Notes: generated by a model not told the origin, from the letters alone. Shown: positions 3,307 through 40,090, numbered from the stretch's first letter. The stretch: DNA of 64,000 nucleotides from Candidatus Yanofskybacteria bacterium (GCA_016185525.1 JACPNK010000005.1:92473-156472), one strand, 5' to 3'. Program-made: numbers and translations.

Positions 3307-3759
3307 ATGAAGTTTTTGTCAAAGAGTCCTAAAGAAACGCAAAAAGCGGCGGGAGTTCTGGCTAAGAAAATAACCCGAAAAACTTTGCAAAAAAGAACTG
3401 CTTTGGTGCTGGGTTTGGAAGGGGAGCTTGGCGCCGGCAAAACTACTTTCGTGAAAGGTTTTGCCAAAGGTCTAGGCCTCAAAAACAAAATTTCTAGCCC
3501 GACTTTTGTTTTAATAAAGTCTTATAACTTAAAACTTACGACTTATAACAACCTCTTCCACATTGACGCCTACCGGCTTAAAGACCACGAGGATTTAATC
3601 AGGCTGGGCATAAAAGAAATTTTTAGTAATCCCAAAAATTTAATCTTAATTGAATGGTCAGATAGAGTAAGAAAAATATTGCCAAAAAACTATCTTAGAA
3701 TTCACATAGACCACATAGACGAGAATGAAAGAAAAATTGTTATAGAAAATGACAAATGA
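3307..3759 (+). CDS. tsaE: tRNA threonylcarbamoyladenosine biosynthesis protein TsaE (YjeE-type P-loop ATPase)
   Basis: LGLEGELGAGKTTFVKG Walker A followed by SPTF. Size 150 aa. Confidence 0.8.
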   Translation: MKFLSKSPKETQKAAGVLAKKITRKTLQKRTALVLGLEGELGAGKTTFVKGFAKGLGLKNKISSPTFVLIKSYNLKLTTYNNLFHIDAYRLKDHEDLIRLGIKEIFSNPKNLILIEWSDRVRKILPKNYLRIHIDHIDENERKIVIENDK

Positions 3760-20887: not shown

Positions 20888-21070
20888 TTACTACCTCCTT
20901 TTTTGACAAAAACCGACTGAAACGAAAGTTCAGCCCACATCATACCATATCTTATCGTTGTTGTAAATAGCAACAACAAACAAGATAACAAAAAAGCCCA
21001 TATTCAGGCTATTTCTTACTCTTAAACTCTTATTAAAATTTTTCTTTTCTGCTTCTATAAAATATGGTTT

Positions 21071-21138
21071 CCTCTAGAGGCGGGGTTTTCGGGGAAGTGA
21101 AACTTTTCACTTTCCCTCAATACCCTTCTCATCCCACC
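21071..21138. repeat. conserved ~68-bp tRNA-flanking element, copy at tRNA-Leu (second copy at 30489-30556)
   Basis: cctctagaggcggggttttcggggaagtgaaacttttcactttccctcaatacccttctcatcccacc is ~80% identical to the copy next to tRNA-Ser(GCT). It contains the agtgaaa..ttcact hairpin and ends in an inverted partial copy of the tRNA T-arm. Confidence 0.6.
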
Positions 21139-21190
21139 AAAACAGATAATTAACAATACCTTCAAAAGGAAGATATTGTTAATTCCTGAT

Positions 21191-21274
21191 GTGCTCGGGG
21201 TGGGATTCGAACCCACATGGGCTTGCGCCCACAGCATTTTAAGTGCTGCGTGTAAACCATTCCACCACCCGAGC
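21191..21274 (-). tRNA. tRNA-Leu (anticodon TAA), long variable arm
   Basis: Hand-folded: acceptor GCTCGGG/CCCGAGC, anticodon loop CTTAAAA, T-arm GGGTTCGAATCCCAC. Confidence 0.8.
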
Positions 21275-30266: not shown

Positions 30267-30420
30267 GTGTTTAAAATTAATTTCTTAATTATGCAAAAAT
30301 TTCTTTTGCCCTTCACTCTCAAATCCTTTTCCTTTTCGCCAAAAAAGCCTTTTCAAATCCTATGCGAGCGGCGCATCTCGCGCCGCGAGCTGACCTCTTC
30401 AAATTTGCATTTTCCCAACT

Positions 30421-30439
30421 GGCGGAGGGAGTGGGAGTC
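30421..30439 (-). repeat. direct repeat of the 3' end of tRNA-Ser(GCT); identical 18 nt are also at 30611-30628
   Basis: gcggagggagtgggagtc occurs twice, 189 bp apart, in the same orientation. This is the pattern of an att-site duplication at a tRNA gene. Confidence 0.6.
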
Positions 30440-30449
30440 CTCTTCCTCC

Positions 30450-30487
30450 GAAAATTTCTATATGCCTAAAGGCATATAGAAATTTTC
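30450..30487. repeat. perfect palindrome with 17-bp arms
   Basis: gaaaatttctatatgcc-taaa-ggcatatagaaattttc. A second palindrome, gcataaatagttagc-aaaa-gctaactatttatg, lies at 30574-30606. Confidence 0.7.
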
Positions 30488-30488
30488 T

Positions 30489-30556
30489 CCTCCAGAGCCG
30501 GGGTTTTCTAAAAAGTGAAATTATTCACTTTTTCTCAATACCCTTCGACTCCCACT
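30489..30556. repeat. conserved ~68-bp tRNA-flanking element, copy at tRNA-Ser(GCT)
   Basis: cctccagagccggggttttctaaaaagtgaaattattcactttttctcaatacccttcgactcccact. The hairpin agtgaa-attat-ttcact is flanked by A and T runs, so it looks like a bidirectional terminator. It ends in an inverted copy of the tRNA-Ser T-arm (ttcgactcccact). Confidence 0.6.
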
Positions 30557-30611
30557 CTTGCATCGACAAGTAGCATAAATAGTTAGCAAAAGCTAACTAT
30601 TTATGTACATG

Positions 30612-30697
30612 CGGAGGGAGTGGGAGTCGAACCCACCTGACCCCTTTCGGGGTCGGAGATTAGCAATCTCCTGCACCAGCCGATATGCGCCCCCTCC
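30612..30697 (-). tRNA. tRNA-Ser (anticodon GCT)
   Basis: Hand-folded: acceptor GGAGGGG/CCCTCC(T), anticodon stem-loop GGAGA-TTGCTAA-TCTCC, long variable arm, T-arm GGTTCGACTCC. Confidence 0.75.
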
Positions 30698-31475: not shown

Positions 31476-31505
31476 TTTATTTTTATGGTATAATCAAGAT
31501 TAACT

Positions 31506-32600
31506 ATGAACTTCGGTTTCTTCAAGAATTTTTTATCTAAAGGCACGCTTGGAATAGATATAGGCACTGCCTCAATCAAAGTTGCCGAGCTTTCAAGAGA
31601 AAGCGGGCACTTTAAGTTACTGAATTATGGAATCTTCCAGCTTGAGAATCAAGAAGAAGCTATTGAGACCAAGCAGAAGATTACCAAATTGCCCGATCAG
31701 GATATTGTTTGGGGCATAAAAGAGCTTATCTCTCGTTCGGGAGTGAAGAGCAAAAACGTAGTTGCCTCTATTCCCTCGTTTTCAACTTTCTCAACGACTA
31801 TCTCCTTGCCCTACTTGTCAGAGAAAGATTTGGCAAAAGCCATTCCTTTTGAGGCTAAAAAATATGTGCCAATTCCGATTGATGAAGTTATTTTAGACTG
31901 GTCAATCATCAATTTGGCTTCTGACCATGCTGGCGGCGGACAGGCGTTGGCGGGAGGGCGGGTTACTCCCACAGTAGAAGTTTTTCTGGCGGCGGTGCCG
32001 AAGCATGAGACAGAAAGATATAAAAAAATTATGACTGCCGCGGGTTTGAATTTGGCGGCCCTTGAACTTGAAAATATTGCTTTAATCAGATCTCTGATTG
32101 GCAACGACCTAAGTCCGGTTGCGATAGTTAACATTGGAGGCAGAAGCACGTCTATATTGGTGGTGGACCGGGGTTTTGAGAGGATAAGCCACAATTATGA
32201 GATCGGAGGATTTGAGATAACCAAGTCCATTGCCCGATCTATGGGCGTCAGTCTTTCCAGAGCGGAAGAATTTAAAAGAACAGTCGGTTTAAAATCAGAC
32301 AGCACCAAAGTTGTGGGAGAAGCAATGATTTCTTTGTTGGACATGATTGTCTTTGAATCAAAAAAAACCATAACCACCTATGAAAATAACAAGGGCGCCA
32401 AAATACAAAAAGTTTTTTTGTCCGGCGGAGTGGCCAACATGCCGAGCTTTCTTGAATATTTTAAGTCCAAGATTAATTTAGAAACCGCTATTAGCAATCC
32501 TTTTGTACGCGTTGTCTACCCAAAAGAGCTTGCCAAGATGATTCCTGAACTAAGCCCGACTTTTTCAATAGCTGTGGGTTTGGCTATGAGAGAAGTGTGA
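31506..32600 (+). CDS. pilM: type IV pilus assembly protein PilM (actin-like ATPase fold)
   Basis: GIDIGTASIKVAEL N-terminus. 364 aa. Followed by pilN/pilO-like genes. Confidence 0.8.
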   Translation: MNFGFFKNFLSKGTLGIDIGTASIKVAELSRESGHFKLLNYGIFQLENQEEAIETKQKITKLPDQDIVWGIKELISRSGVKSKNVVASIPSFSTFSTTISLPYLSEKDLAKAIPFEAKKYVPIPIDEVILDWSIINLASDHAGGGQALAGGRVTPTVEVFLAAVPKHETERYKKIMTAAGLNLAALELENIALIRSLIGNDLSPVAIVNIGGRSTSILVVDRGFERISHNYEIGGFEITKSIARSMGVSLSRAEEFKRTVGLKSDSTKVVGEAMISLLDMIVFESKKTITTYENNKGAKIQKVFLSGGVANMPSFLEYFKSKINLETAISNPFVRVVYPKELAKMIPELSPTFSIAVGLAMREV

Positions 32601-39062: not shown

Positions 39063-39116
39063 AGCATGCCTCTTTTATAGTCGACAGCGACAGTTCGGCG
39101 CAAAAAAGAGGCATGC
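39063..39116 (+). promoter_or_regulatory. SD/start-codon-sequestering hairpin, copy 1 (14-bp stem, 26-nt loop) spanning the pilD start
   Basis: agcatgcctctttt ... aaaagaggcatgct. The right arm supplies AAGAGG plus the pilD ATG (39113). The left arm has the anti-SD-like CCTCTT. Loop is atagtcgacagcgacagttcggcgca. Confidence 0.55.
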
Positions 39117-40035: not shown

Positions 40036-40090
40036 CAAATGCCTCTTTTGCAGTTGGCGGCGACAGTCCGACGCAAAAAAGAGGCATTTG
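40036..40090 (+). promoter_or_regulatory. SD/start-sequestering hairpin, copy 2 (arms covary with copy 1)
   Basis: caaatgcctctttt ... aaaagaggcatttg. Loop is gcagttggcggcgacagtccgacgca. The arms differ from copy 1 (gcatg vs caaat), but the change is compensated on the opposite arm. Confidence 0.55.

Follow-up and report, generated by a model that had tools for sequence, protein, structure and literature searches.

A structured repeat beside tRNA genes of Candidatus Yanofskybacteria appears to represent an undescribed family of site-specific, non-autonomous mobile elements

Introduction

Why do two different tRNA genes of one bacterial genome carry the same short element on their 3' side, and why does each copy end in an inverted likeness of the T-arm of the tRNA that it adjoins? 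The question arises from a 64,000-nt stretch of DNA (hereafter, the window) of a Candidatus Yanofskybacteria bacterium (GCA_016185525.1, JACPNK010000005.1:92473-156472). An initial annotation of this window, made from the sequence alone, described such an element of ~68 bp next to tRNA-Leu(TAA) and tRNA-Ser(GCT), and proposed for it three candidate roles, namely a tRNA-specific terminator or processing module, a regulatory RNA pairing with the tRNA, or the remnants of tRNA-targeting insertions that each copied part of their target.

Results

Repeat and Inverted T-Arm Copies in the Window

Ten tRNA genes were identified in the window by ARAGORN. The shared repeat is real, since the stretches 21070-21137 and 30488-30555 (direct-repeat family D4) are 81% identical over 68 nt; just these two copies occur within the 64 kb, and motif searches returned 2 matches against 0.00-0.07 expected by chance. 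Because both tRNAs lie on the minus strand, the repeats stand 3' of tRNA-Leu(TAA) and tRNA-Ser(GCT), as the ARAGORN calls confirm, and on the plus strand the end of each repeat reads as the neighbouring tRNA in sense from the T-loop onward, that is, as an inverted repeat of the gene. The T-arm mimic was likewise recovered, with 11/13 matches for Leu (TTCtcATCCCACC, 21126-21138, against TTCGAATCCCACC in the tRNA) and 14/14 for Ser (TTCGACTCCCACTC, 30544-30557), corresponding to tRNA positions 54-66 and 54-67, respectively. In this stretch, only 2 positions discriminate tRNA-Leu from tRNA-Ser, and the window pair alone is therefore weak evidence that each copy mimics its own tRNA; the claim stands because seven further loci from other assemblies all abut a tRNA.

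Elsewhere in the window, two intergenic stretches, 39066-39114 and 40039-40087, share a repeat of 49 nt at 86% identity, the ends of which are palindromic (ATGCCTCTTTT...AAAAGAGGCAT; repeat families D6 and I25).

Full Unit at tRNA-Ser(GCT)

On the far side of the Ser copy lies a distal repeat of the tRNA 3' end with the native CCA, which the initial annotation had missed. Moreover, a second conserved hairpin and more of the core (30440-30487) extend beyond the 68-nt repeat, and the full unit is therefore about 190 nt; the repeat itself holds at 68 bp, as a part of this unit and not as the whole of it. The unit has no ORF, and its parts are as follows.

30611..30697, minus strand: tRNA-Ser(GCT), intact (ARAGORN; Rfam tRNA, 35.5 bits)
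30422..30610, minus strand: whole insertion, 189 nt relative to empty orthologous sites (alignment with L018 and L008)
30611..30628, minus strand: proximal copy of tRNA positions 57-74, GACTCCCACTCCCTCCGC (sequence; direct-repeat family D2)
30558..30610, minus strand: left arm ("spacer"), with a perfect 14-bp palindrome, 30574-30587 / 30592-30605
30544..30557, minus strand: inverted copy of tRNA positions 54-67 ("T-arm mimic"), in tRNA sense GAGTGGGAGTCGAA, complementary to the tRNA
30440..30543, minus strand: conserved core (folds, alignment fold, covariation, covariance-model match of 137.9 bits)
30500-30503 with 30540-30543, minus strand: P3a, in the conserved core
30510-30533, minus strand: P3 hairpin, in the conserved core
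30440-30443 with 30494-30497, minus strand: P2a, in the conserved core
30444-30449 and 30488-30493, minus strand: symmetric internal loop, GGAGGA/GGAGGA on the tRNA-sense strand
30450-30487, minus strand: P2 hairpin, in the conserved core
30422..30439, minus strand: distal copy of tRNA positions 57-74, the original 3' end (sequence; family D2; alignment)

The 189-nt insertion comprises 171 nt of element and the 18-nt duplicated tRNA segment, and owing to the repeat its boundaries can equally be drawn as 30440-30628. The proximal copy is the working 3' end of tRNA-Ser and is followed by CAT, not CCA; the distal copy runs on into the native CCA (30420-30422) and flank. The core, of ~105 nt, is 81-95% identical among all copies, and pairwise identities indicate that the left-arm sequence is unique to each insertion lineage. 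In the window, the spacer palindromes occur in situ only, with no copy elsewhere as a source of the arms. In the predicted folds, the tRNA 3' end, the left arm and the inverted copy form a single long hairpin with a bubble over tRNA positions 68-74, and the distal copy would pair with the inverted copy as helix P1, closing a three-way junction.

Truncated Copy at tRNA-Leu(TAA)

21191..21274, minus strand: tRNA-Leu(TAA), intact, followed by CAT (ARAGORN)
21139..21190, minus strand: left arm, with a 17-bp near-palindrome, 21148-21164 / 21168-21184
21126..21138, minus strand: inverted copy of tRNA-Leu positions 54-66, 11/13, degenerate at 57-58
21071..21125, minus strand: truncated core, with P3a, P3 and only the 5' strand of P2a (alignment)

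On the tRNA-sense strand, the near-palindrome of the left arm is followed by a T-rich stretch. This copy has neither the P2 hairpin nor the distal tRNA repeat, and it scores 54.3 bits with the covariance model, vs 125-145 bits for the full copies; judged from its sequence, the Leu copy (21071-21138) is a decayed, 3'-truncated member of the family. The tRNA-Leu(TAA) loci of relatives are empty (L021, L022, and L025). As a separate observation, L021 and L022, which share the same NTP-transferase protein, diverge right past the CCA of tRNA-Leu(TAA), after position 3412, and this variable region, anchored at the tRNA 3' end, is unrelated to the element.

Further Copies in Other Assemblies

A pattern scan of one genome per species yielded five further copies in three assemblies, all adjoining a tRNA 3' end (Asp, Ala, Ser-gct, Asp, and Ser-act), and when loci were retrieved via genes homologous to the neighbouring ComF-like one, two further lineages with the unit at tRNA-Ser(gct) emerged, L009 and L011/L012/L013. 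The seven extra loci, from Parcubacteria-type assemblies, hence lie at Asp (two), Ala, Ser(gct) (three), and Ser(act). None of these copies lies away from a tRNA, which would have spoken against the association, 7/7 loci abutting one. All copies are placed 3' of the tRNA in one orientation, the tRNAs being Ser-gct, Ser-act, Asp-gtc, Ala-cgc, and Leu-taa.

In tRNA sense, complete copies follow the order of tRNA to position 73/74, arm, inverted segment, core, positions 57-74 again, and native flank. CAT follows position 73/74 in 7/9 copies. The arm consists of 50-60 nt of unique sequence with a long near-perfect palindrome, the inverted segment of ~14 nt complementary to tRNA positions 54-67, and the core runs GAAGGGTATTGAG...GGAGGAAGAG; in all cases the direct repeat spans tRNA positions 57 to 73/74 (17-18 bp). 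Most of the extra copies have both a matching inverted copy and the direct repeat. Over positions 57-67, the inverted segment agrees with its own tRNA at 8-11 of 11 positions, and the own tRNA is the best match in 7/9 copies; in L004 and L009 the segment is slightly closer to another tRNA. The distal copy is perfect in the window, L003, and L011, differs from the proximal copy in L004 (G73 versus A73), and is damaged by deletion in L009. Most tRNAs of the window genome are without an encoded CCA.

No diverged extra copies were detected by covariance model R1 on the window and 23 loci, and pattern scans of JGI metagenomes returned either nothing or two chance matches inside coding sequences (L014 and L015). 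The strain of the window is present in source metagenomes, SRR12113384 and SRR12113428 among them.

Filled and Empty Sites

When the window is aligned with L018 and L008, a 189-nt block is present in the window only and consists of the element plus the duplicated positions 57-74. L018 reads ...CCCTCCGCCAGTTGGGAAAATGCCAATTTGAA..., which is the tRNA of the window joined straight to its distal flank, and both the tRNA and the downstream flank (CAGTTGGGAAAATGC...) are collinear between the two. Given the empty orthologous tRNA-Ser loci and the flank shared with L018, the unit is therefore an insertion. The tRNA-Ser(gct) site is filled in the window, L003 (ComF 84% identical), L011/L012/L013 (59%), and L009 (59%), and empty in L008 (87%), L016 (64%), and L018 (52%), filled and empty sites interleaving along the scale of ComF identity.

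L009 and L010 encode an identical ComF protein, and their sequences differ immediately after tRNA C74. Beyond C74 of tRNA-Ser(gct), L010 (4884-5393) carries unrelated sequence with an inward-facing serine-recombinase-type zinc-ribbon fragment; the first 7 nt past its tRNA (TGTCAAT) are the reverse complement of those of L009 (ATTGACA), and by eye the post-tRNA sequence has no obvious likeness to the element.

Other irregularities were observed at or near these loci. In L017 (3286-3330), from the assembly that also holds L001, tRNA-Ser(gct) breaks off in the anticodon loop, with GAGGTTTG before the break and TTCCCAATTTG... after it, which could reflect an intron, another insertion or a misassembly. 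Compared with L018, the window has a second small insertion at 30348-30393, a GC-rich hairpin of ~35 nt in a genome of 41% GC, reading on the minus strand TCAGCTCGCGGCGCGAGATGCGCCGCTCGCATAGG plus ATTTGAAAAGG, in which an 11-bp direct repeat (ATTTGAAGAGG / ATTTGAAAAGG) flanks the hairpin. GC-rich inserts, rich in CTTCGGC/GCCGAAG, are also seen at L009 5066-5140, L011 4938-4985, and L001 ~2805-2840; in L009 and L011 the insert is nested behind the CCGCC of the distal tRNA copy, with CCGCC repeated at its flanks, and in L001 it stands in place of the P2 hairpin. These inserts may constitute a second family of tiny hairpin insertions.

Fold, Covariation and Transcription

On either strand, the window unit is predicted to fold into a three-way junction (z = -7.0 and -8.9), in which the inverted tRNA segment and the distal repeat form P1, one arm is built of P3a and P3, and the other of P2a, the 6x6 loop and P2. 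In the alignment of eight copies, 94.6% of the cells are paired, and two-sided changes affect 20/47 pairs, compared with 7.7 ± 2.0 in shuffles (0/500) and 2-3 in slid controls. P2a changes from CTCT/AGAG to CTTC/GAAG in the Asp copies, P3 has a compensatory change of G:C to A:T, and P2 is almost free in sequence with its hairpin kept. Across the aligned copies, the helices of the three-way junction are shown to be maintained by compensatory changes. From the sequences we infer that the junctions after position 73/74, proximal and distal, are both placed 6-7 nt 3' of a helix that involves one and the same internal segment.

For the transcript of tRNA plus element (30412-30697, minus), the MFE conformer is predicted to put the distal 3' copy in the acceptor and T stems, the proximal copy being taken up by the inverted segment, and the outcome is a tRNA that carries a "T-loop insert" of ~190 nt; if folding proceeded during transcription, the ordinary tRNA would be favoured over this conformer. 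The fold is highly stable (z = -7 to -10.7), and complementarity of a read-through transcript to the T-arm, as suggested earlier, is borne out in these predictions. According to the promoter scan, the sole promoter-like site near the Ser locus is that of the tRNA itself (30736-30709, minus), none being predicted inside the element at this locus, and any transcript would therefore be a read-through in the tRNA sense. On the tRNA-sense strand, in a small sample with conflicting signals, the wobble pairs of P2 and P3 comprise 7 G·U cells vs 0 A·C; the mismatches of P1 are mostly A·C (4 vs 1).

The cumulative GC-skew minimum of the window falls at ~31500-32000, where gene orientation passes from minus to plus, and this may mark the region of a replication origin; the two tRNAs that bear the element are oriented in the direction of the inferred fork.

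Evolutionary Pattern

The window and L011 share 93% identity in the core and 85% in the arm, vs just 80% in tRNA positions 1-56. Within one genome, the copies at tRNA-Ala (L002) and tRNA-Ser(act) (L005) are 93% identical in the core and 97% in P2, with unrelated arms and different inverted segments. A core that is more conserved than the host tRNA, and near-identical at different tRNAs of one genome, points to spread beyond vertical descent. Direct signs of recent movement, such as identical copies or an excision circle, were not seen among the loci found, where few copies occur; a function in the host, and not recent spread, could be what conserves the core and keeps the distal repeat perfect.

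L011 combines a window-like arm with a P2 that is 100% identical to that of L009, of which the arm and the tRNA are unrelated. The histories of the modules are therefore discordant, and a simple model in which one unit moves does not explain them; recombination, gene conversion or nested replacement could do so. P2, which is flanked by identical GGAGGA hexamers in tRNA sense (30444-30449 and 30488-30493 in the window), swaps its sequence between lineages independently of the rest of the unit, and may be a nested hairpin insertion into an ancestral CTCT-GGAGGA-AGAG hairpin. In L002 and L009, both repeats are closer to the host tRNA than the inverted segment is, a pattern of the sequences that leans slightly toward target duplication or selection for tRNA function.

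Searches for Relatives and Enzymes

Rfam 15, searched with the whole window at the gathering threshold and with the element at E ≤ 10, returned tRNAs and noise only, with no family for the element, and its covariance models detected no group I or group II intron ribozyme core in either. Autonomous relatives gave no match in core-motif scans of IMG/VR or in blastn against phage and plasmid collections. Pfam was applied to 28 window ORFs (positions 108-35886) and to 10 neighbours of other copies, which correspond to housekeeping or unknown proteins; neither the first ~36 kb of the window nor the neighbours tested yielded a recombinase, a transposase or a reverse transcriptase, and neither an IS110-type DEDD transposase nor a Y1 HUH transposase (TnpA) or TnpB was seen in the same set, in which the other loci are 3-9 kb long. 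Full-text literature searches retrieved no published description of such an element.

Several candidates were tried and rejected. The serine-recombinase lead of L010 was abandoned, its homologues being short zinc-ribbon/recombinase fragments, mostly without a catalytic domain, and without tRNA linkage in the one context examined. A hammerhead or K-turn motif in P2 was discarded by inspection, as the P2 sequence is not conserved; SRP RNA and tmRNA were not detected; and small-ORF coding was set aside because the helices covary. IS91 targeting of GTTC fits one junction and not the other, by inspection, and a tRNA-primed retroelement using the distal repeat as primer-binding site was dismissed since the CCA is native and the inverted copy ends at position 67. 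As an observation apart, many CPR genomes encode proteins of 140-250 aa (P0242-P0360) that have, of the domains of large serine recombinases, just the recombinase and zinc-ribbon ones and apparently not the catalytic one.

Discussion

We consider it likely that the family consists of non-autonomous, site-specific mobile elements that home to the tRNA T-loop/3' end. Its members are ORF-less, about 170-190 bp long and MITE-like in status, without terminal inverted repeats, and their hosts are Parcubacteria-type CPR bacteria (Candidatus Yanofskybacteria and relatives), described as tiny groundwater bacteria. As a kind of site-specific non-autonomous mobile element, it appears to be undescribed. 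The copies show that insertion is specific in both site and orientation, with the repeat at fixed positions 57-74. Among the roles first proposed, that of tRNA-targeting insertions which copied their target is sustained by the 189-nt difference between filled and empty sites, by the position of all copies against a tRNA, and by an inverted segment that tracks the tRNA; termination or processing and anti-tRNA regulation find no support as the primary explanation. The tRNA stays intact because its last 18 bases are duplicated, and the inverted T-arm copy in each insertion hints at a base-paired choice of target.

As a mechanism, we envisage that an enzyme encoded elsewhere would move the element in trans, recognising a folded single strand, either DNA or an RNA copy. 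In this folded strand, the internal tRNA-complementary segment would pair with the T-arm/acceptor strand of the tRNA, and the pairing would set both junctions in one context, 6-7 nt 3' of the helix, after position 73/74. The register would be fixed relative to tRNA structure, an equivalent reading placing the junction right after G53-T-T-C56. The 18-nt repeat might be a target duplication from a staggered cut or an element-borne replacement of the tRNA end, and the junction of an excision circle would read ...GGAGGAAGAG-GACTCCCACTCCCTCCGC-ATGTACAT.... Recognition as a folded single strand, through pairing of the internal segment with the target, is probable. A more specific proposal, which we put forward as tentative and rather doubtful, is guided homing, whereby the 11-14-nt segment would pair with the T-arm/acceptor strand and thereby guide a nuclease or recombinase, acting in trans, that cuts at set tRNA coordinates, after tRNA position 56 and/or 73/74. 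The conserved three-way junction would then be a protein-binding scaffold and the segment a new class of guide, and since T-arms are so similar, few changes of the guide would suffice for retargeting between tRNAs.

The copies might instead be scars of tyrosine- or serine-integrase islands or prophages, that is, T-loop integrations with a replacement 3' end, reduced by internal deletion to their attL and attR arms. Integrase-mediated insertion is classically marked by a direct repeat that extends from the T-loop as far as the tRNA 3' end, tRNA-Ser(gct) is a hotspot, and L010 carries its serine-recombinase-like fragment directly after C74. However, the ~190-bp architecture recurs at no fewer than six independent sites and at five tRNA species with no integrase nearby, and independent deletions would not leave this same unit time and again. 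Furthermore, compensatory change that preserves three helices would be unexpected in attP arms, as would an inverted core copy 50-60 bp away, and the L010 sequence bears no obvious likeness to the element by eye, the homologues of its protein being fragments that are not tRNA-linked in the one context examined. We therefore regard an origin as island scars as improbable.

We hold it equally unlikely that the unit is a cis-acting RNA of the host, in which a structured 3' trailer would serve as a terminator, a processing signal, a stable sRNA or a regulator pairing with the tRNA. With the promoter of the tRNA as the sole promoter-like site, transcription would be by read-through, and the P2/P3 wobble pairs favour the tRNA-sense strand; the predicted fold is very stable (z = -7 to -10.7), conservation is strong, and the arm hairpins resemble tRNA terminators. 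Nevertheless, close relatives are without the element at the same tRNA (L008, L016, and L018), the Leu loci of relatives are empty, and the Leu copy of the window, a truncated remnant, has lost half of the structure beside an intact tRNA. Such a function would need to be dispensable, yet tied to five unrelated tRNAs, and insertion rather than function accounts for the duplicated tRNA end.

An intron-like T-loop insert, in which the ~190-nt block between C56 and G57 would be removed or tolerated in the RNA and the distal 3' end with CCA used, matches the predicted MFE fold of the whole transcript, which is exactly such a conformer, and the perfect distal copy of the window, L003, and L011, but is very improbable, given that Rfam detected no ribozyme family, inspection reveals no bulge-helix-bulge, the 5' junction being embedded in an uninterrupted helix, every copy keeps a perfect tRNA end on the proximal 3' side, a distal exon is missing from the Leu copy, the distal copy of L009 is deletion-damaged, and an encoded CCA is missing from most tRNAs of the genome anyway.

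Returning to site-specific mobile elements as the preferred reading, streamlined genomes would, on its conservative form, host an element that enters essential tRNA genes without damage, which would account for "partial tRNA" fragments and conserved trailers otherwise misread by annotation pipelines; a covariance model is now available for a census of such elements. If guided homing were true, this would be an ORF-less mobile module with its target written in a short exchangeable sequence beside a conserved scaffold, an architecture like that behind the programmable omega RNAs (TnpB/IscB) and bridge RNAs, and a partner enzyme would await discovery in CPR bacteria.

Comparison With Known Systems

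Integrase islands and prophages resemble the element in the T-loop-to-3'-end direct repeat, the tRNA kept intact and the single orientation at the tRNA. The element differs in its size of ~190 bp without an integrase, its internal inverted core copy, its folded scaffold and its five tRNA species. Among the features of islands, the direct repeat of the 3' part of the tRNA is present at both ends and an integrase is absent, inside or adjacent, the neighbours being housekeeping genes. With MITEs the element has in common a length of ~190 bp, the absence of an ORF, its occurrence at ≥9 loci and a target repeat of 17-18 bp; inspection of its ends, AT(G/C)... and ...GGAGGAAGAG, reveals no terminal inverted repeats, and the sole inverted repeat of the unit is tRNA-derived and internal. 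Casposons generate long target duplications (14-15 bp), sometimes at the 3' end of a tRNA gene, and are alike in this respect; in contrast, they encode Cas1 and a polymerase and have terminal inverted repeats, and the element has none of these and no ORF.

The bridge or seek RNAs of IS110/IS1111 are similar in being element-encoded structured RNAs with target-matching segments, in elements without terminal inverted repeats that use palindromic-repeat targets. IS110 recombination duplicates only a 2-nt core, in contrast to the 17-18-bp repeat of the element. In bridge RNAs the guides lie in internal loops, whereas the target-matching segment of the element lies in helix P1 and its sole internal loop is invariant (GGAGGA/GGAGGA); the predicted fold is a three-way junction, and not an RNA with two guide-bearing internal loops. 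The ssr9 of ISPpu9 is a stand-alone RNA-gene module, a selfish non-autonomous element that uses the IS110 transposase in trans, from which it follows that ORF-less structured modules can be mobilised in trans (PMC12288879).

Members of IS200/IS605, which transpose as single strands (with IS608 as the paradigm, and including the ORF-less derivatives PATEs and REP/BIME), are also small and structured, without terminal inverted repeats, and in them hairpins matter over sequence; the cleavage or target site is paired by an internal "guide", the junctions lie at a fixed distance 3' of the helix, and the process is strand-specific. Hairpins are present in the element, as is an internal stretch with complementarity to what lies 5' of both junctions, in a geometry and with a guide length unlike those of IS608. 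Guides of IS200/IS605 comprise 4-5 nt with non-canonical pairs, compared with 11-14 Watson-Crick pairs for the segment of the element, and these families leave no long direct repeat, unlike the element, which has one as well as a non-conserved left hairpin. The XerCD-dependent integration of CTX-phage and IMEX is alike in that no recombinase of its own is encoded, two inverted target-like segments form a stem mimicking the target, and the integrated inverted copy sits one hairpin loop from the junction; it is unlike in that the target is dif and not a tRNA, and that the phage genomes are kilobase-sized.

In brief, membership in the IS110 family fails on the defining features tested and membership in the IS200/IS605 and CTX-type families is doubtful, and by analogy the logic of the mechanism would be closest to the guide-directed site choice of IS200/IS605 and to the target mimicry of a folded strand in CTX-type integration.
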